From Candidatus Minusculum obligatum (GTDB lineage Bacteria > Patescibacteriota > Minisyncoccia > Phycocordibacterales > Phycocordibacteraceae), in contig CP174360.1 in NCBI GenBank assembly GCA_045401155.1, positions 419,079 through 483,078 of the forward strand: a stretch of 64,000 nt of DNA, read 5' to 3'. The position numbers were made by a program, and so were the translations under genes. Numbering within the stretch: position 1 is the first letter of the stretch; every line of letters starts with the position of its first letter. Positions 93 through 64,000 of this stretch are shown one piece after another. A model generated the notes under the pieces. That model saw nothing but the letters and a program-made list of their open reading frames with translations. It ran no database searches and was not told where the DNA came from.

Positions 93-401
93 ATGTATTT
101 CCCCCCAGGAGTTATACAAGAGGAGCATACGCACCCATCATTCAGAGTAGGAATTGTCGTAGATGGAGAAGGTTTATGTGTTGTGCGGGGCAAAAAAATA
201 CCAATAATGAAGGACTCTATTATTTATATGGACAAAGAAACTCCTCATAACTTTTACTCAAAAACAAACTTGACTGTTATTACATACCATCCTGACAGTA
301 ATTTTGGACCAACGGACCATATCCATCCTATGATAAATAAAACTATTGTTCAAAATAAACCTGTACTTGAGTCAAAGCCTGAAATACATACAAAAAATTA
401 G
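93..401 (+). CDS. cupin-fold domain protein (possibly 5' partial)
   Basis: The cupin motif G(x)5HxH(x)n E...G is present (PGVIQEEHTHPSFRVGIVVDGEG), with a second motif around PHNF. The ORF lies near the window edge and may extend upstream. Confidence 0.45.
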   Translation: MYFPPGVIQEEHTHPSFRVGIVVDGEGLCVVRGKKIPIMKDSIIYMDKETPHNFYSKTNLTVITYHPDSNFGPTDHIHPMINKTIVQNKPVLESKPEIHTKN

Positions 402-853
402 GTGTCTAGTTTTTTTAGAAAAGTTTTAAAATTTTTCTCATAACGCAGCTCTTTTTCCTTTCTTGAAAGAGTTTCGTATGGCTGGTCTGGATTTACTTGA
501 GCCCTCATGTTTTCAAGACAATTTAAATTCGAACAAAGATACATTCCGTACTTCTTGTTCTTTTGTGCTGTTTGTACTGAAAATAGAGAAACATTCCTTC
601 CTCTGCCCGTTGTGCGGCACCAAGAACAAGACTTAGCAATATTGGTATCTACTAGAGTTCTATCAAAAATCAAACCAATTAATGAGCCTTTGGATTCAGT
701 TAGAAGGTACCCCATATGACCCGAGGGATGAATCCATGAAAAAAAGGGCTTTGTCTCAAAGCCCTCAAACAATATTTGAGGGACTCTTAGATTCTTTCTA
801 CTCTTCTTGGGGAAAAGCTCTGCGACTTCATTTTTTGACTTAAATTTGTGCAT
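398..853 (-). CDS. small zinc-finger protein (CxxC...Cx4C, treble-clef/zinc-ribbon-like); paralog of 1504..1971
   Basis: CSWC...CSNLNC motif with a conserved C-terminal helix (ETLSRKEKELRYE..FLKKL). It aligns collinearly with the 1504..1971 product (GYLLE, CxxC, SLFSV/SILTF, Cx4C, ET(L/M)S..EK..R(Y/F)E). Any resemblance to the FusB-type EF-G-binding C-terminal zinc finger is tentative only. Confidence 0.45.
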   Translation of the reverse strand: MHKFKSKNEVAELFPKKSRKNLRVPQILFEGFETKPFFSWIHPSGHMGYLLTESKGSLIGLIFDRTLVDTNIAKSCSWCRTTGRGRNVSLFSVQTAQKNKKYGMYLCSNLNCLENMRAQVNPDQPYETLSRKEKELRYEKNFKTFLKKLDT

Positions 854-880: not shown

Positions 881-1456
881 ATGTCTAAATCAAATACTTT
901 TATTTTCTTGAGGCACGCAGAAACAAAAAAAGATCCCTCTGTGCCAGCAATAGATTGGGAACTTACAAAAGATGGAAAAGTTAAAGTTTTGGAACTTCTT
1001 GATGATCCATCCTTCAAGATAATTGATGGTGTATATTCATCAACAGAACTAAAAGCAAAAAAAACAGCCCGACCATTTGTTGAGAAATACGAGGTTCCCT
1101 TTTTAGAAGTTGATGCACTTAAGGAAGTTAAACGAGGAGAAGCTTACCTAACCGACGAAGAGTTTCAAAAACTTAAGCGAGAAAAGCTTGAGCAACGTGA
1201 CTCGGCAAAAGATGGTGGAGAGACAGCAAATAGTGCTTTGATTCGCTTTTCAAAAGCCATGCAAGAAATTGACTCTAATCACTCTGGGGAAACAATCCTT
1301 GTTGTTTCTCACGGCACAATACTGGCGTTGTATTTTTCTAATCTCAAAAAAGATTTTGAAAACATATACTCTTACTGGAAAAATATGAAGTTTTGTGCTT
1401 TTGGAATAATAAAAGATGGAAAGGTCCAGAAGGATATTTCTAGTATTGACAGTTAA
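881..1456 (+). CDS. histidine phosphatase superfamily protein (phosphoglycerate mutase-like)
   Basis: N-terminal RHG-type motif FIFLRHAET and a downstream catalytic His region (VVSHGTILAL); about 190 aa, typical of the family. Confidence 0.75.
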   Translation: MSKSNTFIFLRHAETKKDPSVPAIDWELTKDGKVKVLELLDDPSFKIIDGVYSSTELKAKKTARPFVEKYEVPFLEVDALKEVKRGEAYLTDEEFQKLKREKLEQRDSAKDGGETANSALIRFSKAMQEIDSNHSGETILVVSHGTILALYFSNLKKDFENIYSYWKNMKFCAFGIIKDGKVQKDISSIDS

Positions 1457-1503: not shown

Positions 1504-1971
1504 ATGGAATTGCCCTGGGAAAACTTGCGAAGCCAATTGCCTCGCAAAGAAAAGAAGTTCTTTGAAAGACCTCCGAACTGGAGATCTCCGGAAATGTTAT
1601 CAAGCGGTTACGTTATGTGGCGCACCAAAAACGCCAGACGCGGCTATCTGCTTGAAACTATAACTTCTGACGAAGCTTCGCTTTGGGCTTTTGAACTTGA
1701 GAGAGTTCGTAACACAAGTTCAGGCGCAATCATGTGTGATTTGTGCAAGTACGTCCACAGTGAAGCTGATGTTGGAACAAGCATCTTAACTTTCCGGCCA
1801 ACCAAAACGATTTCACGCAACTTTATTGTCTGCGCTGATCTGCAGTGCTCTAGTCGATACAAAGACATCGGTGTTAACTCGATGAGAGAAACCATGTCAC
1901 CTGCAGAAAAGCTGGAACGGTTTGAGGTCGAACTGGTAAACTTTCTCGAAAAAATTAGAGAAGCGCCGTAA
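1504..1971 (+). CDS. small zinc-finger protein (CxxC...Cx4C); paralog of 398..853
   Basis: CDLC...CADLQC motif. It shares the GYLLE block and the C-terminal ETMSPAEKLERFE..FLEKI helix with the 398..853 product. Confidence 0.45.
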   Translation: MELPWENLRSQLPRKEKKFFERPPNWRSPEMLSSGYVMWRTKNARRGYLLETITSDEASLWAFELERVRNTSSGAIMCDLCKYVHSEADVGTSILTFRPTKTISRNFIVCADLQCSSRYKDIGVNSMRETMSPAEKLERFEVELVNFLEKIREAP

Positions 1972-1990: not shown

Positions 1991-3754
1991 TTACTCTTCC
2001 TTAAGAAATCCCCCAGCCTGGTGCTCCCACAAAGATGCGTACACGCCTCCTTTTCCTACCAACTCTTCATGTGACCCATCTTCAACGATATTTCCATCAT
2101 CAAATACAAGAATACGATCCATTTCTCGTAGCGTAGAAAGACGATGTGCAATCGCAAGCACCGTTTTCCCCTCCATTAGATTTGAAAGTGCCTTTTGCAC
2201 TGCCACTTCACTCTCACTATCAAGCGCACTTGTCGCTTCATCAAGAATAAGAATTGGCGCATCTTTTAGAAATGCTCTAGCAATCGCAATACGCTGTCGC
2301 TGACCAACAGAAAGCTTTACCCCTCGCTCTCCCACCATTGATCCATATTTCTCTTTTAGCGCGTCAATAAAGTCATGTGCTTGTGCTCTTTTTGCAACCT
2401 CAATCATTTGCTCCTCTGAAGCATTAATATCTCCGTAAAGAATATTTTCTTTAATTGAACGATGGAAAAGAATTGGCTCTTGCGGAACGATTGCGATATG
2501 TGAGCGAAGACTTTCAAGTGTTACATCTTTTACATTCTGACCATCTAGTGAAATGGATCCGCTTGTAAGGTCATACTGACGAAGCAGAAGCTTCATAAGT
2601 GTTGTCTTCCCTGCTCCTGAACGACCCACAATTCCAACCTTTTGATTTGCAGGAATCACAAGATTCACATCATCAAAAATCTTATCTTTTGCGTCCTTAT
2701 ATTCAAACGAAACATCAGAAAATACAATTTCTCCTTCAGATGCAGATAACTCCTTTGCATCTGGCGCATCAACAACATCATGTGGCACGATAATCTCCTT
2801 CAAACCATCACGCATCTCTCCGTATGACTCCATGATGTTATTTAGCCACTGTCCCACAAATGTAAATGACCACATCAAGTGTCCCAAAATACCAACAACC
2901 AGAATAAATGAACCAAGTGTAATTAACTCTTGCGACCAAAGATTAAATGACCAAAGTGCTGCAGCAATTCCAATACTTGCAGCAATAATATTATTTATAA
3001 GAAGTACAGTTTCTGTATAGTAGTCACTCTTTATCTCTGCATCTCTGTGCTCAAAGATATATTTATCCAACCTCTTAAGCTCGTGATCTCTTCGTGCAAA
3101 TTGCTGTATTGGAATAATGTTTGAAACAGCATCGATAAGCTCTCCACGAAGCTTGGCTCCTGTCTCTACCATTTTCTCTGAAAGATTGATCTGCTTCCTT
3201 GTTAGGAAAAAATTAATTGGAATCAATACAAACAAAGATCCAATCATGAAAAGTCCCAACTTTAGATTTACACTTACAATCAAAGCGAGGTTAATAACAA
3301 TAGTTGAGAAGTTTGAAACAATCATCCAAAGGAATTGCCCCAAAAGCCTCATGCTGCTTTGTGAAATAGTATTTACTCGACTTCCAAGTGACCCTGCGAA
3401 ACGATCACTAAAATACCCGAGGCTATGATCTGATAGATATCCAAAAAGAAACCGGCTAATGTCTGTTCGCGCGTGCACCGTAAGGTAATGCATTATGTAA
3501 TTAGAAACACGAATAAGTAGTGCGTAGAACAAACGCGCAATCGGGATCACCATCAGCCAGAAGAACACAGTGCTTAGAGGCACTTTATCTTCTACGTATA
3601 GATTTGCGCTATCGATAAGACGCTGCAGACCAATAGTTGCAATTCCTCCAAGAATCTCGATTAAGATTACAAATGCCGTTGCAGCAATAAAAAGCCACAA
3701 ATACTTGCGGACTGCAAAAAGCATGAATTTTATTGGATTACTGGAGACTTTCAT
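1991..3754 (-). CDS. ABC transporter, fused permease/ATP-binding subunit (MsbA-like exporter)
   Basis: Six-TM N-terminal domain; Walker A GRSGAGKTT, ABC signature LSVGQRQRIAIARA and Walker B ILILDEATSALD. Confidence 0.9.
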   Translation of the reverse strand: MKVSSNPIKFMLFAVRKYLWLFIAATAFVILIEILGGIATIGLQRLIDSANLYVEDKVPLSTVFFWLMVIPIARLFYALLIRVSNYIMHYLTVHARTDISRFLFGYLSDHSLGYFSDRFAGSLGSRVNTISQSSMRLLGQFLWMIVSNFSTIVINLALIVSVNLKLGLFMIGSLFVLIPINFFLTRKQINLSEKMVETGAKLRGELIDAVSNIIPIQQFARRDHELKRLDKYIFEHRDAEIKSDYYTETVLLINNIIAASIGIAAALWSFNLWSQELITLGSFILVVGILGHLMWSFTFVGQWLNNIMESYGEMRDGLKEIIVPHDVVDAPDAKELSASEGEIVFSDVSFEYKDAKDKIFDDVNLVIPANQKVGIVGRSGAGKTTLMKLLLRQYDLTSGSISLDGQNVKDVTLESLRSHIAIVPQEPILFHRSIKENILYGDINASEEQMIEVAKRAQAHDFIDALKEKYGSMVGERGVKLSVGQRQRIAIARAFLKDAPILILDEATSALDSESEVAVQKALSNLMEGKTVLAIAHRLSTLREMDRILVFDDGNIVEDGSHEELVGKGGVYASLWEHQAGGFLKEE

Positions 3755-3794: not shown

Positions 3795-5396
3795 TTACGT
3801 ATTTTTAACCGGCAACTCGATAATAAATCGAGACCCCTTCCCTTTTCCTTCTGACTCTACCCACACCCTTCCCTTATGCGCCTCCACCATTTGCTTTGCA
3901 ACATACAGTCCAAGACCTGTTCCTGAGGTATTAATCTTATTTGCTCCACGCGCACGAATAAACTTATTAAATAGATTATCAATATCCTCTTTTGCAATTC
4001 CGATACCAGTATCTGCAACAGTCACTCGTGCCTTTCCTTCAAACATTGTCGCTTTAACCGTCACGCTTCCTTGTGGTGTGTATTTAATAGAGTTATCGAC
4101 AAGGTTTGCGATCACCTGCTTTATCTTTCCAATATCAGCAGTAACTGTGATCTTCTCTGATCCGCTAAATAATAGATTTAGATTTTTATTCTCTGCGACT
4201 GGTAGATATTCATCTACAACCGTCTTTGCAAGATCTCGTAGATTAAAATCACTCATCTCATACTTCATTCGCCCCTGCTCAATACGTGAGATGTTTAGAT
4301 AGTCCTCAACTGACTTAATCATAAGCCGAGAAGACTCATAAATCTTCTGTAGTGGATCTTCAAGCACCTTTGGATATTCTCCAAACTCTTTTTCAAGGAT
4401 AAGAGAAATATATCCGCGAATAGCAGTAATAGGACTTCTAAGCTGGTGTGATGCGATAGATACAAACTCTGACTTCTGTCGATCAAGCTCTTTAAGCCGA
4501 GCATTTGCAACACGTAAATCTTCTGCAAGCTTTTCAATTCTCTCTCGCTGCTTTACCTCCTTATATACACTTTGGATCAAAAGGAATGCTGCAATACTCA
4601 CCAACACTAGTGTTGCGGTGGTAATAATGAGTGCAAGGAATGTCTGCGTAATAAAGAGCTGCGCAAGCAGGATAAGAATAATAAACCCTGCAAAAAGCTC
4701 AGTAACAATAATTTTCACGTCAAAGAGTTTAAAGCGTGCCATCGCCATAAACATCATACTTACCATCACAAGTGTAAATACTGGACCAAGCCACGTGAAC
4801 TGAAAAATACCTAGATATGGAAATAGAAGATTTGAAACAAGTGCGAGCGTTGGGGAAATAATTGCCCCAAGGAATACATAGCGCACCTGCCCCTTCTCAA
4901 GCTCCGTACGTGCAAGCGTGTATTGTCTAAACAAAAGAAAATATCCTAGGAAAAAAGATCCCGTCACAAGAGCCGAGTACCATGAGTACAGTGGACCAAG
5001 GCCATAAGAAATACCTGTTGAAGCACCAATTACTAAATCAGTAGTAAAGATTAGATATAAGAACACTCCTGCAAGTGCAATTACAGGCAACAAAAGACGT
5101 TTTCTCTTTGCAAGAATGTTTTGTGGGAAGAGTGTCGTAAAGATAAGGAAGAACAAAGAGCTTAATAGTGCAAAACTATGCGTATACTCAATCCATTGCA
5201 AAGAAAGATCTTCAAAGAGTGAAAAATAAAACCCTGCTACTGCCCCAGCCCAAAGTGCAGTAGAAAGAGAGAAAAGTGCAAAAAGAATATTCTTAAGCAC
5301 GCGTACACCGCGGGAAAATACGATAAAAGGAAAAATAATATTGATAGTCGCTGTTAGAAACAAGACTATTTGAATAACCGCGTTCGATACACTCAC
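3795..5396 (-). CDS. sensor histidine kinase, polytopic membrane N-terminus
   Basis: About 7-8 predicted TM helices, H-box SHQLRSPITAIRGY, and N/G1/G2 boxes (NLVDNSIKYT, DTGIGI, GTGLGL). No cognate response regulator is adjacent. Confidence 0.85.
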   Translation of the reverse strand: MSVSNAVIQIVLFLTATINIIFPFIVFSRGVRVLKNILFALFSLSTALWAGAVAGFYFSLFEDLSLQWIEYTHSFALLSSLFFLIFTTLFPQNILAKRKRLLLPVIALAGVFLYLIFTTDLVIGASTGISYGLGPLYSWYSALVTGSFFLGYFLLFRQYTLARTELEKGQVRYVFLGAIISPTLALVSNLLFPYLGIFQFTWLGPVFTLVMVSMMFMAMARFKLFDVKIIVTELFAGFIILILLAQLFITQTFLALIITTATLVLVSIAAFLLIQSVYKEVKQRERIEKLAEDLRVANARLKELDRQKSEFVSIASHQLRSPITAIRGYISLILEKEFGEYPKVLEDPLQKIYESSRLMIKSVEDYLNISRIEQGRMKYEMSDFNLRDLAKTVVDEYLPVAENKNLNLLFSGSEKITVTADIGKIKQVIANLVDNSIKYTPQGSVTVKATMFEGKARVTVADTGIGIAKEDIDNLFNKFIRARGANKINTSGTGLGLYVAKQMVEAHKGRVWVESEGKGKGSRFIIELPVKNT

Positions 5397-5420
5397 ACGC
5401 CTAGTATACCTGAGGTTCGC

Positions 5421-6173
5421 TTAGATAATCCGTGCAGCCTTCAGAAAATTTGTGTACAAATTATTTTTTAACTTGTATTCCGTGTCGCTTATACGATCAA
5501 AGAGGAATCGTCCGTGTACTGTTTTATCTAAAAACTTTTGCCCGTCAGTAATAGATACATATGCCGGAATCGCAGGGTCTTCTTCATTATAAAAATATGG
5601 AGCCATAGGACCATCTTCAATATATAGAAGTTTAGAATCTTCTATAAGCGTGTATGGGAAATTTAGTTTATCCAGCTTCTTAAGGAGTCTAGATTTGATA
5701 AATGAATATGAATATACAAGCCCATTCTCTTTTGCGTAATCAAGAAGACAGCTCATCATAAACAACAGCACTACATTTCTTGGAAAGTATGCAGTGTCAC
5801 TATATTTATCAATTACAAGCCGTCCAAGCTCGCACAAATGTTCCTTTGGAATATCAGCAAGTTCTTCTGGTACTTCAAAAGAATAATTATTAAATACAGG
5901 AAGTGTATGATGTTCGGCTTTAATAAGGCGAACAAATCCAATAAGACGATCTCCTACCATTGCACCAAAATATATTGTCCCTTCTTGCTCATCGTATAGG
6001 TCAGATTCTTTTTCCTCCGTATACTGCGTAGTATCAAGATAATTATATTTTGTATAAATCTTATATCGAAGCGCTTCTGCTTTTTCTACCTCCTCTTTAC
6101 TTACAAGCTCTCCAAATGAGATTACTTCATCAATATCCTTTGTTTGTACGTGGAGTGTCTTGTAAGCCTTCAT
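5421..6173 (-). CDS. GNAT-fold N-acyltransferase, N-acyl amino acid synthase-like (OlsB/FeeM/LuxI-like family)
   Basis: About 250 aa with a YFGAMVGDRLIGFVRL...ELGRLVID pattern reminiscent of FeeM/OlsB/autoinducer-synthase type acyl-ACP-dependent N-acyltransferases. Last gene of a tight 3-gene operon. Confidence 0.4.
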   Translation of the reverse strand: MKAYKTLHVQTKDIDEVISFGELVSKEEVEKAEALRYKIYTKYNYLDTTQYTEEKESDLYDEQEGTIYFGAMVGDRLIGFVRLIKAEHHTLPVFNNYSFEVPEELADIPKEHLCELGRLVIDKYSDTAYFPRNVVLLFMMSCLLDYAKENGLVYSYSFIKSRLLKKLDKLNFPYTLIEDSKLLYIEDGPMAPYFYNEEDPAIPAYVSITDGQKFLDKTVHGRFLFDRISDTEYKLKNNLYTNFLKAARII

Positions 6174-6174
6174 A

Positions 6175-6882
6175 CTACTTTGTTGCTTTATGCATCACAG
6201 CTTGATCTCCATAGTGCCGACCGTGAAATTCAACATTCTTGAATCCACCTGATTTTAGAAACGCTTCCTGACTATCTTCATCTAAGAATGCATATGCCCC
6301 ATCTTTATTTTCCATTTTAATACGTGCGTTAAACCAAAAGATTTGAAGCGTAGGGATTACAAACTTAAGGATCTTTGCACACGTACCAAAGAAGCCACTT
6401 TTATCCATTTCCTCCTTTAAGTGTGCGTTGTAAATCTTCATTGGACTGAATCCTGGAGAAATATTTGAAACAGCCACTACCCCACCTGGCTTTAGCACTC
6501 TATAAAACTCTTTAGCCACAGACTCTCGATCTTTTTCAGGAAGCGTATAGATAACATTATTTGAAACAACCTTATCAAACGTCTCATCTTCAAATGGAAG
6601 CTTATCTGTAAGACTTCCAATGTAAGCTTCTGCATCAGGAATCTTCTCAAGAAGTAGTCGTGTACCCGCATCTGAAATATCAAGCGTAACAAGATTAACT
6701 TTTGCGACAGCACAAATCTTTTTAGAAACATTTCCTGTTCCAGACCCAGCATCAAGCACTTTTTCTCCCTCTTTTGGGTCAAGTACTTTTACAAGTGCAC
6801 CCGTTAGATGTTGATATGGGTAGAGCTCATTTAGAACGTCGTACACCTCAAAATATTTATTCCAAAATTTATCTGAAAGCAT
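6175..6882 (-). CDS. class I SAM-dependent methyltransferase
   Basis: Motif I VLDAGSGTGNVS, post-I acidic residue, motif LKPGGVVAV. Lies 1-2 nt from both flanking genes. Confidence 0.8.
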   Translation of the reverse strand: MLSDKFWNKYFEVYDVLNELYPYQHLTGALVKVLDPKEGEKVLDAGSGTGNVSKKICAVAKVNLVTLDISDAGTRLLLEKIPDAEAYIGSLTDKLPFEDETFDKVVSNNVIYTLPEKDRESVAKEFYRVLKPGGVVAVSNISPGFSPMKIYNAHLKEEMDKSGFFGTCAKILKFVIPTLQIFWFNARIKMENKDGAYAFLDEDSQEAFLKSGGFKNVEFHGRHYGDQAVMHKATK

Positions 6883-6884
6883 GT

Positions 6885-7556
6885 TTATACACTATATACT
6901 ACGTCCATCACCTTCGCGGCAACTTCTTTATAATTCTCTTCATCTTTTGAAACGTATATTGGAGGGTGGAAATATACATCAACACGTGTCTTTTTAAAGA
7001 ACACTTTAAACGCATTCATTCCTCGAGTTCCATGAATGGTTGTGGGCACAATAGGTGTACCTGTTTTTGCAGCAAGATATGCTACACCACCGTGTGCTGG
7101 CACATTACGAAGCTCTTCTACAGTCAACTTATCTTTAACCCCCATTGTTCCTTGTGGGAAAATTCCTACAGAGTTTCCATCCTTCAAAATATTTAAATGG
7201 TGCCGAAGAGATTTTCCGTAGTCTTTATGTCCACGATACGCAGGCCATCCACCTCCCGCCTTAAAAAACCAGTCGGAGTATACGAGCTTTCTCCAACCTT
7301 TCCAATGATATTCGTCTTGCTTTCGCGTAACCCAAAATAGAGGTGTGTGCTTCGAGACAATAGGAAGCATTACTCGCTGCGCTACTGGATCAAGTTCATT
7401 TTGATGATTTGAAGCAAAGATCACGTTTTGATCTTTTAATGCTTCCATGTTTTCTTTTCCATGTATTACAAATGTTCCATTCAACTTAAAAAGTGAATGC
7501 AGGAGCGGAAGTGCCAGCCATTGAAGCATTTGCGCTGTAAATACGTAGAATTTCAT
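6885..7556 (-). CDS. lysophospholipid acyltransferase (PlsC/OlsA family)
   Basis: H(x)4D acyltransferase motif NHQNELD and a downstream FPQGT block. Confidence 0.75.
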   Translation of the reverse strand: MKFYVFTAQMLQWLALPLLHSLFKLNGTFVIHGKENMEALKDQNVIFASNHQNELDPVAQRVMLPIVSKHTPLFWVTRKQDEYHWKGWRKLVYSDWFFKAGGGWPAYRGHKDYGKSLRHHLNILKDGNSVGIFPQGTMGVKDKLTVEELRNVPAHGGVAYLAAKTGTPIVPTTIHGTRGMNAFKVFFKKTRVDVYFHPPIYVSKDEENYKEVAAKVMDVVYSV

Positions 7557-7591
7557 GGCTTTTTTATATAATTAAAATGCTTGTTTGTCAA

Positions 7592-8125
7592 TTATTTGGC
7601 CAAGGCAAATAATGCGGCTAACGGGGATATAAACCACCAGAAGAAGAACTCTTTAGGCCCAAACAGTGCATCAAGTGCTGGCGTAAATGCATAAAACTCT
7701 CGTATCGGTACCAGATGATATGCGGCAGAAAGAAGAAGTGCCGTGAGCAAAAATGAAATAATTAAAAGGAAGATAATTCCCGATCTTCCTAAGAAGTCTG
7801 TCACCACCACCCTGTTTAATACGATGTACGGAGGAATCGTAAAGCTTCCAAACATCAAAAGCATCAGTGAGAGTGTCACAAGCGGCTGCCCTTGCCCTGC
7901 CTGCAGTACAACATCTTTAAATGGAAAGAGCGTGTACAGACAAACACCAACATACATCGCCATAGTAAGAGATACTACTCCCCGCCTCCCACTTCTAAAC
8001 ATGAAGAAGGCCATGAGTCCCACAAGGATAATAATGATTAGGAAGTCACTAATAAACGTCCCTGCGGATGCGGTCGTATTTTGGAATATCTCGTTTGCTG
8101 CAGTGAAATCTAGACTAGAGCCCAT
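7592..8125 (-). CDS. hypothetical integral membrane protein
   Basis: About 5 hydrophobic helices; no recognisable catalytic motif. Confidence 0.4.
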
Positions 8126-9170
8126 GCTCCTTTAATTCTCCCACGAGTTTCTTCTGTGTAGAAGACAGCTTCTGTGGAAGCGTTACGGTGATCTTAAGTA
8201 GAATATCTCCCCGATCAGATCCTTGTGGCACTCCATAGCCACGTACACGAAGGATTTCCTCTGCCTTTTTCATGGGAGATATCTTTACTTCAAGCTTCTT
8301 CCCCTCTAGTGTTGTGAGGTTGTGAGTGGTCCCCAGAAGCGCGTCAGTAAGTGTTAGAGGCACTTCTGCTACCAGATTAGCTCCTGAGCGTGTAAATATC
8401 TCATGAGGCGTTACGTGGACTTTGATATACAAATCTCCTGCTTGCCCATTCTTAATAGCTTCTCCATGCCCTGTCATGCGGATCATCTCCCCATTATTAA
8501 TTCCAGCGGGAATAGTGATGGAGATCTCCTCTTCCTGCTTTCTGATTCCTTCTCCCTGACAGTGCGTACATCGCTCTTTTGGAACCTTTCCAGATCCAGC
8601 ACATGCAGAACACTCAGCAACCGTAGAGAACTGTCCAAATACTGAGTTGCGTGTCTCATGCACCTTCCCCTGCCCATTACATGTAGAGCAAGTCTCCATA
8701 TCTGTTCCCTTCTTTGCTCCAGTTCCTTCACACTCATCACACTTAGAAACTTTTGCGATAAGAATCTTTTTTGTAGTTCCAAATACAGATTCTTTAAAAG
8801 AAATCTCTGTGTCCATTGAGATGTCTCGTCCACGACGAGTTCGCGCTCTTCGTCCTCCGAAGATATCTCCAAATCCTCCAAGAATGTCATCTAGATCAAT
8901 GTCAGCTCCCTGGAATCCTGAGAAATCAAATCCGCCTCCATTAAATCCTCCCTGACCTCCTGCAAAGGTACGCCCGTATGAATCGTACTCCTTTCGCTTC
9001 TGCTCATTACCAAGCACGCTATACGCCTCTGACACCTCCTTAAACTTAGCCTCATCTCCCGTCTTCTTGTCTGGATGATACTTTTGAGCTAGCTTACGGA
9101 ATGCTTTTTTAATGTCGTCTTGACTGGCGCTTTTTTCTACCTCAAGAATTTGGTAGTAGTCTTTGTTCAT
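8115..9170 (-). CDS. dnaJ: molecular chaperone DnaJ
   Basis: J-domain with HPD (YHPDK), G/F-rich linker, four CxxCxGxG zinc-finger repeats, C-terminal substrate-binding domain. Confidence 0.95.
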
Positions 9171-9299
9171 GTTGCGAACACTATACAGAATTTGAGTGCG
9201 CTTGTATAGAATCGACCATGTCGCCCTCCATGACTATTTGACCTATTATAAGGCCTCTGAGTAATTCGAAATTTTTTTTATGCTTGGTATATTTATTCT

Positions 9300-9554
9300 A
9301 TGTCTGTAGAAAAGAACTGGTTTTCCAAAAAAGATGGCGTCTTTGGAGACACTTACCTTCTTGAGTATGAGGAACTTCTATCTCGAAGAGTAGAAAGGGA
9401 AGTAAATTTTATCGAAGGAACACTAGATCTAGATCGTGGCGCTAAAATTCTTGATGTCCCATGTGGATATGGGAGGCACAGTGTAGAACTTTCTCGGCGC
9501 GGATATGCAGTCACAGGCGTTGAACTCAATGCAGCGTTCCTCTTAACTGAATAG
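9300..9554 (+). pseudogene. class I SAM methyltransferase, N-terminal fragment only (truncated)
   Basis: ILDVPCGYGRHSVELSRRGYAVTGVELN is a typical motif I/II region, but the ORF stops after 84 aa. It overlaps the 3' end of a convergent truncated decarboxylase fragment. Confidence 0.45.
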
Positions 9555-10075
9555 TGGCCAATTCCTTGAGGCACAATAACCTTGAACAGCTCTGGGTCAC
9601 GAACACCATTTTCAATAGTTCCTGGAGCCTTGCGCTCTCTGGCAAGCATCATGCCAACAGCATTACTTAGTGTCCCTCCAAGAGTAACGATTCCTCCAAC
9701 ATCCCAAACGCTCTGAATCTTTTTTTTATTTTTATACCCAACAGCCTCTCTTAGCCACTGTAAAACCGCAATCTCTACAAACGTAGCAGAAGGTGCACAA
9801 AAAGATTGGTTAATGAGATTCTGCTGTAAAAAATCAGAAATAAGAGCTCCTCCTATACCTGCAACTGAATTGCCTGAATCTGGAAACCCCATAAAACGTT
9901 CAGTTCCAAAATTCCCACAACTTGGAAGAACATCTTCTAGGAACTCTCTTTCTATATCTTTTAGTGAGATGCCCTCGGCAGGAAGATCTTTAACGATTTT
10001 TTCCTTAAGTGTTTCCGAATCTACCTGCTTTTCCCTAAAGTCTATTCCTGTTTTTAACTCAACTCCAGCCTCCAC
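9530..10075 (-). pseudogene. PLP-dependent group II (amino-acid) decarboxylase, N-terminal ~180-aa fragment
   Basis: FMGFPDSGNSVAGIGGALISDF...SPSATFVEIAVLQWLREAV...GGTLSNAVGMMLARE...HYSVKRNAALS match the conserved N-terminal half of GAD/AADC-type decarboxylases. The PLP-Lys region and C-terminal two-thirds are absent, and the reading frame then runs antisense through the methyltransferase fragment. The 3' boundary is approximate. Confidence 0.5.
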
Positions 10076-10147
10076 AAGAGAATTAAAAAACTCTTTCGCA
10101 AGCTCTTTGTTTTTATTAGGTAAGAATTATTTTGTTTTCTTTATCCA

Positions 10148-11827
10148 TTATTTTGATAATTTTTTTAATTGAGCCTCAATTTCTTCATCTTCAACCTTCT
10201 TAAACAACCCTTCTGCGCCAGAAACTTTATAAGTTTTTTGTGGTCGCCTATACTCCCAAGAAATAGAGTCTTTGTTCCCCAACATACCAAATATCTTTTC
10301 AGATGAACTTGGCACAAACGGATAAAAGAGAACTGCCAAGTTTTCAATAATATGAGCCAGTGAAGCTAGGTCTCCTGGAACATCATCACTATCATCTGTC
10401 TTTACCTTCTTCCAAGGGGCTTTACTATCGAGGTATCGATTACTCTCCTCAGCAATAGATAAGGCCTCTCTGAAAGCTTGTCGGAATTTTCCTGCTTCTA
10501 GCAACTCTCCAACAGCACTACAGCCCTCCTGAAGCTTTGAAACAAGGTTGGCGTCTCCACTTTGATATGCAACACCATCAGGATAATTGCGCTCAATAAA
10601 AGTCAGCACTCTGTTCACCAAATTTCCATATGTACCAATAAGCTCTCCATTTACGCGGTTTTGAAATTCTTTCCATGAGAAGTCAGTATCTCCACTTTCA
10701 GGACCATTAGCAATGAGGAAGTAGCGTAACAGTTCTCCATCAAACACCTCAAGAAATTCAGGAAGCCATACTGCCCATCCTCGGCTCTTTGAAAATTGCT
10801 TACCTTCCAGTGTTAGATACTCTGAAGATACGATTTGATTTGGCAAATGAAGTGATCCCTCAGCCTCCAAGATGCCTGGCCAGATAATCGTATGAAATGG
10901 AATGTTATCTTTTCCATGCACATAATAGTGTTTTGCTGTATCATTCTGCCACCAATCCGCAACACGGAGACCACGCTCTCTCGCCCAAATAACCGAGGCA
11001 GAGTAATATCCACACACAGCTTCAAACCACACATAGATCCTTTTATTCTCGTACCCCTCAAGCGGGATTGGCACTCCCCAGTCCGTATCACGGGTAACCG
11101 CACGATCTTGAAGACCTTGCTTTAGAAACGCTTTAGCAAAAGAGCTTGCATTTAGTCTCCACGAATCACTAGTCTCGGAGACCCACTTTGTAAGTTCCTC
11201 CTGAAGACCAGACAACTTTAGAAAAAAATGTTCTGTCTCACGTTCTTCTAACTTTAAGTCTTCTGGGGATACTCCTTCTTTTTGTGGAAGTATTTTTGTA
11301 TTAACACGTGGACCAATGAGTTCAAGAGGATCAAGAAGTTTTCCGCAGTCATCACACTGATCTCCGCGAGCTCCATCATATCCACAATGAGGACACTTTC
11401 CTTCAACAAACCTGTCAGGAAGGAAGCGATTTAAAAATGGAGAAAAAAGCGCCTTCTCTATTTTGGTGTATAGAAATCCTTTCTTATATAACTTCAGAAA
11501 TAATTCCTGCACTACCTCCGCGTGCCCCTTATCAGTTGTTGCGCCATATCTATCATATGAAAAATTAAGACCTTTTATCAAGGTGTTTTTAAACTCTTCA
11601 TGGTACTTTTCTGCAATCTCTTTGGGAGCAACGTTCTTATTTAAAGCTTCTACAGCAATAGGAGTACCATAACAATCACTTCCAGAAACAAAGAGTACAT
11701 CATCCCCCTTAACGCGATGATATCGAGCAAGCACATCTGCGCCAACAAATGCAGCTGCATGCCCAAGGTGAAGAGAGCCATTTGCATACGGCCATGCCAA
11801 CCCAATAAGTATGTTTTTCTTGCTCAT
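10148..11827 (-). CDS. metG: methionine--tRNA ligase
   Basis: HIGH-type motif (NGSLHLGHAAA), CxxC/CxxC zinc knuckles, KMSKS variant KFSKS. Confidence 0.95.
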   Translation of the reverse strand: MSKKNILIGLAWPYANGSLHLGHAAAFVGADVLARYHRVKGDDVLFVSGSDCYGTPIAVEALNKNVAPKEIAEKYHEEFKNTLIKGLNFSYDRYGATTDKGHAEVVQELFLKLYKKGFLYTKIEKALFSPFLNRFLPDRFVEGKCPHCGYDGARGDQCDDCGKLLDPLELIGPRVNTKILPQKEGVSPEDLKLEERETEHFFLKLSGLQEELTKWVSETSDSWRLNASSFAKAFLKQGLQDRAVTRDTDWGVPIPLEGYENKRIYVWFEAVCGYYSASVIWARERGLRVADWWQNDTAKHYYVHGKDNIPFHTIIWPGILEAEGSLHLPNQIVSSEYLTLEGKQFSKSRGWAVWLPEFLEVFDGELLRYFLIANGPESGDTDFSWKEFQNRVNGELIGTYGNLVNRVLTFIERNYPDGVAYQSGDANLVSKLQEGCSAVGELLEAGKFRQAFREALSIAEESNRYLDSKAPWKKVKTDDSDDVPGDLASLAHIIENLAVLFYPFVPSSSEKIFGMLGNKDSISWEYRRPQKTYKVSGAEGLFKKVEDEEIEAQLKKLSK

Positions 11828-14355: not shown

Positions 14356-14910
14356 TTGCTGTTTTATTCACAAAGTAATAACATTCAAAATATGGAATGT
14401 AGTAATTGCAAAACTCACATTGAACCGTCAGATAATTTTTGCACGAACTGCGGTACAGAAACTCCTCAGGTTTATTTTTATGGAAAAAATTGGAGAAAAC
14501 AACACTCAATTGTTTTAGTAAAAAGTAACAATTATGACATTTTTATATCTGATAAATCTTTATACATAATAAAATTTAAGGCTGTTATTGGGGCAGGAAT
14601 AGGTTTTCTCTTCGGGCTTATTATTCTATCAATCCTTGGTGCTTTTATTGGAGGTTTAATTGGAAATCGTTTTGATGAAAGAAAAATAAAAAGAACACGC
14701 TCTACTTGGATCACAGATAGCAATCGATTAATTTCTAAAAAATATAAAGAGTTTGTTTATATTCAAATTCCTTTTGAGGAAATTTCTCGTTCTTTAGAAA
14801 TTAAAGATAAGAAAATTCACATTTATACAAATAACAAGAAGTATACATTTTTAAAAAATAAAGAAGAGATTGCCCTTTTAAAGAAAAAGCTAAAAAAATA
14901 TGTTTTGTAA
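14356..14910 (+). CDS. zinc-ribbon (CxxC-x11-CxxC) single-pass membrane protein, hypothetical
   Basis: N-terminal CSNCKTHIEPSDNFCTNCG, one TM helix (GIGFLFGLIILSILGAFIGGLIG). Strongly AT-rich, Lys/Ile/Asn-rich gene. Confidence 0.4.
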   Translation: MLFYSQSNNIQNMECSNCKTHIEPSDNFCTNCGTETPQVYFYGKNWRKQHSIVLVKSNNYDIFISDKSLYIIKFKAVIGAGIGFLFGLIILSILGAFIGGLIGNRFDERKIKRTRSTWITDSNRLISKKYKEFVYIQIPFEEISRSLEIKDKKIHIYTNNKKYTFLKNKEEIALLKKKLKKYVL

Positions 14911-15457
14911 AAAATGCGGAAAGGAAATTTTAGAAAGTAATGTAAACAAAACCTGTCTTTCTTGTGAAAAAAATATACTTGAAGATAAGAAAAAGGATTT
15001 AAGAGAAAAATGGGGCCTTGGAAAATGGACTTTTATTGTAATAGTTATTCTTATTCTTTTGTGCATTAGTATATTTTTTTCAATAATAAGAAGTGAAATT
15101 GAATATCAGAATGAAGTTGACTCTAGTTTTTCATCACAACTTTTTATGGAAAATTTGGCGAAAGATATTCAAAGCGGTTATGGAAAACTCCCCGTAGAAA
15201 TTAATGACTTTACAACACTGGATAAAATTACAGGAGAATCTCAAAAAATTATATATTCATATACTCTTTTTGGTGTTTCCCATATAAACAACGATGAGGC
15301 TTTGGAGATTAAAAAAGAATTGACCCAAAATCTTTGTTCTCTAGAAGATGTTCAGATTTTTATAGATGGAGAAGTTGTTTTTGAATACAATTACTACAAT
15401 GATTCATCTTTTTTATTAAAAACAATATCAGTAAATTTTAAAGATGACTGCACTTAA
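14900..15457 (+). CDS. zinc-ribbon single-pass membrane protein, hypothetical
   Basis: N-terminal CKKCGKEILESNVNKTCLSCEKN, one TM helix. The start overlaps the stop of the upstream gene (coupled). AT-rich. Confidence 0.4.
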   Translation: MFCKKCGKEILESNVNKTCLSCEKNILEDKKKDLREKWGLGKWTFIVIVILILLCISIFFSIIRSEIEYQNEVDSSFSSQLFMENLAKDIQSGYGKLPVEINDFTTLDKITGESQKIIYSYTLFGVSHINNDEALEIKKELTQNLCSLEDVQIFIDGEVVFEYNYYNDSSFLLKTISVNFKDDCT

Positions 15458-63592: not shown

Positions 63593-63976
63593 TTATCCTT
63601 GAAAAAATTGATCAATCTTTGAGGTAATCTCCTCAATTGCAACCTCAGCTTTCACCATATAGTCATTTGCACCAAGCTGCTTTGCTTTCTCTTGATCAGA
63701 CTCTTGAGATAGGTTTGATACCACAATCACCGGCACGTCTTTTAACTCATCTTCTCGTGCGCGAATCTGCTCAAGCACCTCAAACCCTCCCATCTCGGGA
63801 AGCATCAGATCCAAAAGGATGATGTCTGGCTTATATTCTTCTACATACTGTAGTGCTTCATTTCCTGTTCCTGCATACATTGCAGTGTAACGACCAGAAA
63901 AGGTATTTCCCAAAAGGTTTTTAAGAATTGGGTCATCCTCTACTACAAGCACCATCTTTTTATCTTCATCTGCCAT
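63593..63976 (-). CDS. stand-alone response regulator receiver (CheY-like)
   Basis: Acidic pocket (VVEDD), phospho-acceptor Asp in ILLDLMLP, conserved Lys region (GANDYMVK). No output domain. Confidence 0.85.
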   Translation of the reverse strand: MADEDKKMVLVVEDDPILKNLLGNTFSGRYTAMYAGTGNEALQYVEEYKPDIILLDLMLPEMGGFEVLEQIRAREDELKDVPVIVVSNLSQESDQEKAKQLGANDYMVKAEVAIEEITSKIDQFFQG

Positions 63977-64000
63977 AGTGAGTTTATCTTAGCACAGCTT

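Follow-up and report, generated by a model that had tools for sequence, protein, structure and literature searches.

A conserved gene cassette in Candidatus Minusculum obligatum that links a methyltransferase and an N-acyl synthase to a membrane kinase, and its possible role in making an N-methylated acyl amine or aminolipid

What do three tightly packed genes that resemble a lipid-modifying operon make in Candidatus Minusculum obligatum, a member of the Patescibacteriota, or candidate phyla radiation (CPR)? The genes lie within a 64,000-nucleotide stretch of its genome (contig CP174360.1, positions 419,079 to 483,078; hereafter the window, whose own coordinates are used below). All three are on the minus strand, and we refer to them by the working names AT, MT and NAS: an acyltransferase of the lysophospholipid-acyltransferase family (LPLAT/PlsC-like; AT, 6885..7556, 223 aa), a class I S-adenosylmethionine (SAM)-dependent methyltransferase (MT, 6175..6882, 235 aa), and an N-acyl synthase with the FeeM/LuxI fold of the GNAT superfamily (NAS, 5421..6173, 250 aa). 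AT and MT are separated by 2 nt (TAA-ac-ATG), and MT and NAS by 1 nt (TAG-t-ATG). The initial annotation, made from the sequence alone, had likened the trio to ornithine-lipid synthesis, with OlsB-type N-acylation, OlsA-type O-acylation and OlsG-type methylation of the head group, and had proposed an undescribed N-methylated aminolipid or N-acyl amino acid signalling system. The open reading frames (ORFs) and junctions were exactly as it had described, and profile searches upheld all three of its family assignments, namely an H(x)4D acyltransferase, a class I SAM methyltransferase and a LuxI/FeeM-like GNAT protein.

Our analysis indicates that the cassette is real and more than an operon of convenience, and that part of it was anticipated in the literature under another interpretation. 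The best explanation of the data is that AT, MT and NAS act on one lipid-like metabolite. The fuller proposal, to which we give about even confidence, is that the cassette is a pathway whose product is a fatty-acyl amine or aminolipid methylated on nitrogen, and that this pathway is coupled to a membrane sensor of its own. The candidate sensor is a histidine kinase with a seven-transmembrane (7TM) domain, encoded on the same strand at 3795..5396 with a GTG start (HisKA_7TM, HisKA and HATPase_c domains).

The evidence for a functional unit comes first from relatives, of which 95 loci were examined in all (L numbers denote these loci, and P numbers denote representatives of protein clusters). 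A metagenome scan seeded with the MT family yielded 80 loci, which were annotated using family hidden Markov models (HMMs), and those in which MT had 900 bp or more of sequence on each side were taken as informative (n = 42). MT, NAS and the kinase were contiguous in six of six independent relatives (L001, L002, L003, L004, L006 and L007), in which NAS was 40-52% identical, and likewise in L009 and L011. Among the informative loci, a HisKA_7TM kinase lay within 3 kb of MT in 30 and NAS was adjacent to MT, in either order, in 22, while AT was adjacent or fused to MT in five and a GH3 gene was adjacent in two; nine had none of NAS, kinase or GH3 near MT. Based on these counts, MT and the 7TM kinase form the constant pair, NAS is the usual third member, and AT is accessory. 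The kinase, which had been regarded as an orphan, is thus the most constant partner of all. The trio that was originally delineated holds in so far as its genes are conserved elsewhere, but the conserved core is MT-NAS-7TM kinase, with AT in only the five loci counted above.

Gene fusions provide the strongest evidence for a single AT-MT-NAS pathway, in agreement with the original proposal that the three enzymes serve one pathway. NAS-MT fusions were found in P0022 and P0055, and the reverse MT-NAS fusion in P0120; the MT domains of these proteins are 41-48% identical to the window MT over its full length. In L025 and L026, which come from different samples and share 84% DNA identity, a single ORF combines an HX4D/FPEGT acyltransferase with a complete MT. 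In P0092, NAS is fused to a HisC-like aminotransferase dependent on pyridoxal phosphate (PLP). Recurrence of the arrangement both in relatives at 36-52% identity and as gene fusions is far from chance.

Two of these loci carry further features. In L011 (378-6579), the NAS-aminotransferase fusion P0092 has on one side a 225-aa HisKA_7TM protein that stands alone and on the other a histidine kinase of HisKA_7TM-GAF type; a CqsA/AONS-type identity for this fusion was considered and rejected, the PLP domain being HisC-like. In L002 (1-4068), a Patescibacteria contig, a toxin-like SpvB/RHS-repeat/VanY-domain protein (2231 aa, cut by the end of the locus) lies upstream of MT-NAS-kinase.

The position of NAS can also be taken by other enzymes. 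In L021 (1338-6015), L043, L045 and L051, the order is MT, a 360-aa protein, a class V PLP enzyme and the 7TM kinase, and in L066 and L067 it is MT, the 360-aa protein and the kinase; NAS is absent from both arrangements. The 360-aa proteins form one family, related to long-chain acyl-acyl carrier protein (ACP) reductase (6jzu, E 8e-15) and also to PigE, in its reductase-like N-terminal domain. Enzymes of the acyl-ACP-reductase (AAR) type convert acyl-thioesters into fatty aldehydes. The class V PLP partner is NifS-like (389 bits, under the cut-off of 531), and its role in this cassette is uncertain. The NAS-free cassette suggests a fatty aldehyde or fatty amine route into the same methyltransferase and sensor. 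In every variant, the partners of MT either handle fatty-acyl substrates or make or attach an amine: NAS, the AAR-like protein with or without the PLP enzyme, the NAS-aminotransferase fusion, and GH3. The simplest methyl acceptor common to these variants is a lipid amine.

The sequence relationships of MT point in the same direction. MT matched Methyltransf_11 at 64 bits and is UbiE-like across its full length, and its family is a discrete ortholog group of about 88 clusters with a sharp drop-off in score. Among solved sequences, the best matches of the family profile were phosphoethanolamine N-methyltransferases (PMTs), namely AtPMT2 (1.8e-24), AtPMT1 (2.4e-23) and further PMTs; the AtPMT2 match spans MT positions 26-139 only, and that of PfPMT (1e-16) spans 27-213 of 234. 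The same profile matched the phosphatidylethanolamine N-methyltransferase 8ys9 at 3.4e-9 and the O-methyltransferase CysG at 1.5e-10. MT probably N-methylates a lipid amine.

A competing but improbable reading is that the product is an N-acyl amino acid methyl ester, in which MT esterifies the carboxyl group of the NAS product to give a neutral, membrane-permeant molecule, similar to an N-acyl homoserine lactone (AHL), that is sensed by the 7TM kinase. The fold of MT favors it: in the AlphaFold2 (AF2) model (predicted local distance difference test, pLDDT, 94), the closest solved structures are the carboxyl O-methyltransferases CysG and BelI (E 3e-14, TM-scores 0.70/0.76), and because these are its nearest solved folds, O-methylation is still a possible chemistry for MT. 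There is also a weak NCBIfam likeness to BioC and to a fatty-acid O-methyltransferase, and a constant MT and kinase with variable synthases looks like co-evolution of signal and receptor. The phcBS genes offer a precedent for an operon that joins a methyltransferase to a membrane kinase (PMC8578825), and N-acyl alanine methyl esters have no assigned biosynthetic genes, which leaves such a niche open (PMC11580390). However, CysG and BelI are defined by a His-His-Asp metal site and an Arg22 carboxylate clamp (PMC11408123), and in the alignment of the MT family no His is invariant or nearly so, and the N-terminal helix lacks a conserved basic residue. N-methyltransferases were matched far better by profile (1e-24, compared with 1e-10 for CysG), and the amine-generating variants of the cassette (AAR-like plus PLP enzyme, the HisC-like fusion, and the GH3/OlsH-like context described below) point to nitrogen as the methyl acceptor.

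That GH3 context was found in the sister clade of the CPR methyltransferases, which comprises P0241 and P0244, the most divergent full-length members of the MT family (35-37% identical). Both lie in non-CPR contigs of 55-58% GC. In L013, P0241 directly follows a GH3 amido synthetase and also has a divergent alpha/beta-hydrolase as a neighbor, and L057 is a close relative of this locus; in L012, P0244 directly follows an alpha/beta-hydrolase that shares 54% identity with its L013 counterpart. These loci (L013:1624-5735, L057:1086-3693 and L012:3848-5702) mirror, in gene context and with the same three families, the characterized operon of Singulisphaera acidiphila that consists of olsH (GH3), olsG (N-methyltransferase) and olsI (alpha/beta-hydrolase O-acyltransferase) (PMC12493201). 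OlsG has itself been described as a relative of phospholipid N-methyltransferases (PMC12971839). The three loci are probably uncharacterized OlsHGI-type loci outside cultured planctomycetes. NCBIfam holds no models for OlsG, OlsH or OlsI, and a tblastn search of plasmids with the OlsG-like P0241 gave matches to the SAM-binding half only. The OlsG-type N-methylation that was originally suggested gains indirect support from the PMT relatives of MT and from the olsHGI-like sister clade, but the window MT itself lacks this gene context, which takes the form GH3-MT with an alpha/beta-hydrolase in L013/L057 and alpha/beta-hydrolase-MT in L012. A role for MT as a CheR-like modifier of the kinase, raised by a weak CheR match (E 0.002), was rejected in view of the fusions that join MT to NAS and AT and of the kinase-free lipid operons in which its sister clade resides.

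AT matched PF01553 at 52 bits and carries the HX4D ("NHQNELD"), "FPQGT" ("IFPQGT") and "PIVP" motifs, which identify it as a member of the LPLAT family. Its score against the PlsC model TIGR00530 was 40 bits, compared with a cut-off of 102.95, and PlsC of T. maritima (5kym) matched it at E 1.5e-4 only; on the curated model, it does not rank as a canonical PlsC. Its orthologs form a discrete group of 12 clusters at E<=1e-25, with a sharp drop-off in score. AT lies directly upstream of MT in L001, L003, L007, L009, L045, L052, L076 and L081, in addition to the fusions in L025 and L026. Across the loci, it is an accessory member of the cassette.

It is unlikely, although worth weighing, that the full trio shares no pathway, and that AT is instead the housekeeping phospholipid acyltransferase of the lineage, placed behind dnaJ by ancestral gene order, with MT, NAS and the kinase as the actual unit. 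This explanation would account for the small number of informative loci in which AT adjoins MT and for its absence from the cassettes of L002 and L006. It would also account for the AT orthologs without NAS or MT, one after GrpE-DnaK-DnaJ in L014 and another beside an ABC (ATP-binding cassette) exporter alone in L015, and for the order GrpE-DnaK-DnaJ-TM-AT (TM being a small membrane protein) shared by the window, L001, L007 and L052. The single AT-MT ORFs of L025 and L026 argue otherwise. So do L009, where AT directly precedes a NAS-MT fusion with no dnaJ nearby, L045, L076 and L081, where AT again precedes MT, the low PlsC score, and the gap of only 2 nt between AT and MT in the window. As a separate observation, NAS and MT are both missing from the L014 locus (3890-10750), which contains GrpE-DnaK-DnaJ-AT and TrmB and then encodes two proteins of no assigned family (172 aa and 315 aa), a kinase of the HisKA_7TM type and an aminotransferase of class I/II. 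It may represent a third variant of the kinase-linked cassette, resembling the pairs of a "CqsA homolog + kinase" reported for CPR genomes.

We then consider what kind of acyl synthase NAS is. NAS scored 37 bits against FeeM (PF21926; gathering score 27) and, marginally, 24.8 bits against Autoind_synth (PF00765; gathering score 24), while its score against Acetyltransf_5 (PF13444) was 20.4 bits, under the gathering score of 22.4. Across 113 members of the NAS family, FeeM matched 110, Acetyltransf_5 matched 85 (E<=1e-3), and Autoind_synth matched 80. The curated OlsB models NF052555/NF052554 gave 13.4 bits against a cut-off of 320, and on outliers of the family they gave 20-35 bits against cut-offs of 320-350. 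The AF2 model of NAS (pLDDT 89; predicted TM-score, pTM, 0.86) was compared with solved structures using Foldseek, and its best neighbors were LasI, BjaI, FeeM, MesI, RpaI, EsaI and TofI, ahead of generic GNATs; the match to FeeM 2g0b had an E value of 5e-8. The structural comparison with FeeM and LuxI proposed at the outset thus returned LasI, BjaI and FeeM as its top matches. Aminolipid N-acyltransferases (OlsB, GluB, GlsB and OlsF) form a branch apart from NAS and the AHL synthases and require 3-hydroxyacyl-ACP (PMC11631085). Because of the model scores, the fold neighbors and this separate branch, we assign NAS by sequence to the FeeM/LuxI-clan N-acyl synthases rather than to OlsB, and the OlsB label suggested earlier falls away. 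The points on which the initial annotation had staked its reading came out in its favor in other respects: the GNAT protein is of FeeM/LuxI type rather than of an unrelated acetyltransferase family, AT scores 40 bits against a PlsC cut-off of 103, and the genes are conserved elsewhere.

Residue conservation in NAS is consistent with this assignment. The pattern "...G..R(L/I)...ELGRLVID" noted earlier was borne out, with G79, R82, L83, E115 and R118 invariant in close homologs. Over the 113 family members, D58, D61, R82 and E115 are invariant, and R36, Y40, Y45 and R118 are at least 90% conserved; aligned via EsaI and BjaI, the conserved residues correspond to R24, F28, W34, D45, D48, R68, E97 and R100 of the LuxI family. 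An exhaustive profile search found 1582 representatives of the family at E<=1e-3 and 122 at E<=1e-30 (counted as clusters at 50% identity), nearly all of 240-255 aa and mostly confined to CPR-type contigs. Other searches were less productive. The exact NAS sequence of the window had no match in the gene-context record, a scan of GTDB genomes with the single NAS protein found nothing and found one locus, L006, with a tighter alignment, and a metagenome scan with the NAS alignment found nothing.

NAS resembles the FeeM-type N-acyl amino acid synthases known from soil environmental DNA (PF21926) in its best Pfam model, its fold, and the invariance of E115, the equivalent of the catalytic Glu. It differs from them in a family-specific C-terminal extension of about 45 aa, in its methyltransferase and kinase partners, in its predominance in CPR-type contigs, and in the absence of detectable profile similarity to the crystal protein, since the NAS family profile did not match FeeM in a search of PDB sequences. 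The closest curated family is TIGR03694, the PEP-CTERM/exosortase-associated acyltransferases, two members of which (P0153 and P0154) were found by the CPR NAS profile at E ~1e-20. The window NAS scored 39.7 bits against this model, well under the cut-off of 111.95, and has no exosortase context. We know of no experimentally defined product for TIGR03694.

These findings bear on a published account of the same gene pair. Bernard et al. (2020) reported LuxI homologs in CPR genomes, 18 of them next to putative sensory kinases, of which some match the HMM of the CqsS sensory domain, and proposed AHL quorum sensing (PMC7567580). They also noted an "HdtS" (PlsC-family) homolog three genes away in Taylorbacteria (PMC7567580). 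The window NAS very probably belongs to the same family as these homologs, with the same synthase-then-kinase order on one strand, a PF00765 score at the threshold and the LuxI invariant residues. Pairing of NAS with a kinase was therefore already known from that report, and in this respect the system is not as undescribed as was first supposed. The word "methyltransferase" occurs nowhere in the supplements of that study (PMC7567580), and four features appear to be new to the literature, namely MT, the gene fusions, the modules that take the place of NAS, and the OlsG-like context. The first three of these set our data apart from the published account and argue for a methylated acyl-amine over an AHL.

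The N-terminal conserved motif is common to the whole LuxI/FeeM/OlsB clan and so is no proof that SAM serves as the acyl acceptor, which counts against the AHL reading. In that reading, NAS makes an AHL from SAM and acyl-CoA or acyl-ACP, the 7TM kinase is a LuxN/CqsS-like receptor, and MT and AT are bystanders; in its favor, besides the published kinase-adjacent homologs, are the marginal PF00765 match of the window protein, the PF00765 matches of 80 of 113 family members, a NAS equivalent for every LuxI invariant residue, and a family profile that matched seven solved AHL synthases (E 3e-7 to 3e-5; RpaI, BjaI and EsaI at ~4e-7) and not FeeM. The review PMC9654057 gives no residue-level criterion that would split NAS from AHL synthases. 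We nevertheless consider AHL synthesis the least likely of the alternatives discussed here, since the FeeM model scores higher and matches more of the family, the nearest curated family is TIGR03694 and no AHL-synthase equivalog (TraI models, with cut-offs of 250-292, gave only 18-33 bits for outliers of the family), it is not obvious where on an AHL a tightly coupled and sometimes fused MT would act, and NAS can be replaced by an AAR-like enzyme while MT and the kinase are kept.

The kinase itself was identified by matches to HisKA_7TM (PF16927; 31.4 bits, gathering score 28.6), HisKA (52 bits) and HATPase_c (102 bits), and residues 1-275 of the protein contain about 8 (7-8) hydrophobic segments. 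Across orthologs, the sensor domain and the catalytic half are conserved to the same degree (33-50% and 29-54% identity, respectively). No ligand was assigned to HisKA_7TM in the literature that we searched. The kinase has no adjacent receiver domain, and the sole receiver in the window is a stand-alone protein at 63596..63988 on the minus strand (131 aa; Response_reg, 84 bits). Stand-alone receivers directly follow the kinase in L009 and L010, and the window receiver, which is 39% identical to these, is a candidate phosphoacceptor of the kinase. Two HisKA_7TM kinase genes flank MT and NAS genes in L019, L021, L043, L044, L072 and L081, which suggests duplication and divergence of the sensor.

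By analogy, a kinase beside variable synthases recalls autoinducer synthase/receptor pairs such as PhcB/PhcS of Ralstonia and CqsA/CqsS of Vibrio, in which the synthase of a small-molecule signal is encoded beside a multi-pass membrane histidine kinase; the pattern would fit a sensor of membrane composition equally well. PhcB is a SAM methyltransferase that acts on a fatty-acid derivative (PMC8578825). Unlike the kinases of PhcS/CqsS-type cassettes, the window kinase is not a hybrid.

An MsbA-like ABC exporter with fused permease and ATPase is encoded downstream of the kinase, as had been noted (1991..3754, minus strand; ABC_membrane and ABC_tran; MsbA_rel 377 bits, under the cut-off of 780). 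It is a possible exporter or flippase for the product. Exporters of this kind also occur near the cassette in L019, L055 and L066 and beside the AT ortholog in L015, and are absent from most loci; with recurrence in only about four loci, the exporter was rejected as a core part.

Taken in order, the proposed pathway would start with NAS, which by its family would move a fatty acyl group from acyl-CoA or acyl-ACP to the amino group of an amino acid or another amine. The acyl chains would probably derive from scavenged, host-derived fatty acids that are activated elsewhere. MT, again judged by its family, would then methylate the product, most likely on the free head-group nitrogen, much as OlsG acts on ornithine lipid and as the phosphoethanolamine and phosphatidylethanolamine N-methyltransferases act on their substrates. 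Where AT is present, an enzyme of its family could attach a second acyl chain to give a diacyl aminolipid-like molecule. The 7TM kinase may sense the product in the membrane, either as a signal from the cell itself or its partner or as a read-out of membrane composition, and would pass the signal to a stand-alone receiver protein, with an MsbA-like exporter sometimes recruited. What carries this scheme was observed directly, namely the family assignments, the conserved gene order, the gene fusions, the exchange of partner enzymes, and the pairing of MT with the kinase, which stays constant; the substrates, N- rather than O-methylation, the identity of the head group and the product as kinase ligand are what we infer from them.

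This scheme shares its logic with the ornithine-lipid pathways (OlsB/OlsA with OlsG, and OlsH-OlsG-OlsI of Singulisphaera acidiphila), in which an amide is formed between a fatty acid and an amino compound, a second acyl chain is added and the head group is methylated by SAM. AT belongs to the same LPLAT superfamily as OlsA, the best solved sequence relatives of MT are head-group N-methyltransferases, and the sister clade of MT lies beside genes of the OlsH and OlsI types. Unlike in those pathways, NAS is not OlsB, OlsF or OlsH, AT is usually absent, and neither the window nor the 95 loci show an evident ACP or type II fatty acid synthase (FAS II) that could supply 3-hydroxyacyl chains. No described Ols locus, in contrast to this cassette, includes a 7TM histidine kinase as an integral part.

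Several observations weigh against our interpretation. The fold and the sequence evidence for MT disagree on N- versus O-methylation, and what links MT to OlsG is the gene neighborhood found in about two lineages outside the CPR (L013/L057 and L012). NAS falls under the Acetyltransf_5 gathering score and far under the OlsB cut-off, on a branch apart from the enzymes that build known aminolipids. AT is missing from most loci, including L002 and L006, and has orthologs away from NAS and MT, after dnaJ in L014 and beside the exporter in L015. That the kinase senses the product is suggested by adjacency only. Neither the window nor any of the 95 loci yielded an ACP gene, and CPR bacteria are taken to lack the capacity to make fatty acids or membrane lipids (10.1101/465690), which leaves the acyl donor and the 3-hydroxyl that AT would esterify with no evident source. 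The chemistry of the pathway and its product are proposed from sequence and gene context. The product may be either a signal or a structural lipid, and both an ornithine head group and a diacyl membrane lipid are hypothetical features of it.

Beyond this interpretation, we put forward a tentative extension, namely that CPR bacteria operate a self-contained circuit of lipid-amine signaling. In such a circuit, an interchangeable FeeM-like synthase or AAR-like plus PLP enzyme would make amine lipids from host acyl chains, and an OlsG-like MT would N-methylate them, possibly to a quaternary ammonium. The products would be exported and sensed by the co-evolving 7TM kinase.

At the level of transcription, the kinase starts at its GTG 24 nt past the NAS stop, and the ABC exporter starts 40 nt past the kinase. 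A consensus scanner found no terminator-like site in the minus-strand intergenic gaps from AT to the ABC gene. AT, MT, NAS, the kinase and the exporter look co-transcribed, perhaps together with the gene for a small 177-aa membrane protein with four hydrophobic segments (7592..8125, minus strand) between dnaJ and AT. This protein had no Pfam or NCBIfam match; L001 and L007 have weak orthologs (28-32% identity) at the same position, and another was detected in L052. Its membership of the cassette is uncertain. The 35-nt gap between this gene and AT contains a promoter-like TTGACA-N17-TATAAA, read from the sequence (7563..7591, minus strand), whose end lies 6 nt from the AT start codon. It was missed by the consensus scanner, the last base of its -10 hexamer being A, and the promoter-like sites found, 22 compared with 27.7 expected from shuffled sequence, show no excess.

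Elsewhere in the window, between dnaJ and metG (9300-10075), overlapping ORFs on opposite strands encode the first 84 aa of a SAM methyltransferase and a partial PLP-dependent decarboxylase (Pyridoxal_deC 4-165 of 375), and appear to be gene remnants or a locus that was disrupted. Two paralogous FBP_C treble-clef zinc-finger proteins (398..853, minus strand, and 1504..1971, plus strand) flank a gene of the histidine-phosphatase family (881..1456), and a small cupin gene lies at 93..401. Two adjacent plus-strand zinc-ribbon genes with a predicted membrane segment (14356-15457) form the main break in an almost wholly minus-strand window, the cumulative GC skew of which is steadily negative.

The CPR, or Patescibacteria, makes up a large share of bacterial diversity and is thought to depend on hosts for lipids, and how its members sense and communicate with their hosts is largely unknown. 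The cassette is widespread in these bacteria (122 NAS and about 88 MT clusters) and is among the very few lipid-modifying gene sets that they have kept. If our interpretation is correct, it would provide a route either to a signal or to a lipid specific to the CPR, which could serve as a biomarker or to adapt the membrane. It would also correct the published annotation of AHL quorum sensing in CPR genomes, supply a ligand hypothesis for the uncharacterized HisKA_7TM sensor domain, and extend the OlsG-type methyltransferase family beyond planctomycetes. Should the more tentative lipid-amine circuit also hold, its signal, passed from cell to cell or from symbiont to host, would belong to a new chemical class separate from AHLs, and the "LuxI homologs" of CPR bacteria would be reinterpreted accordingly.

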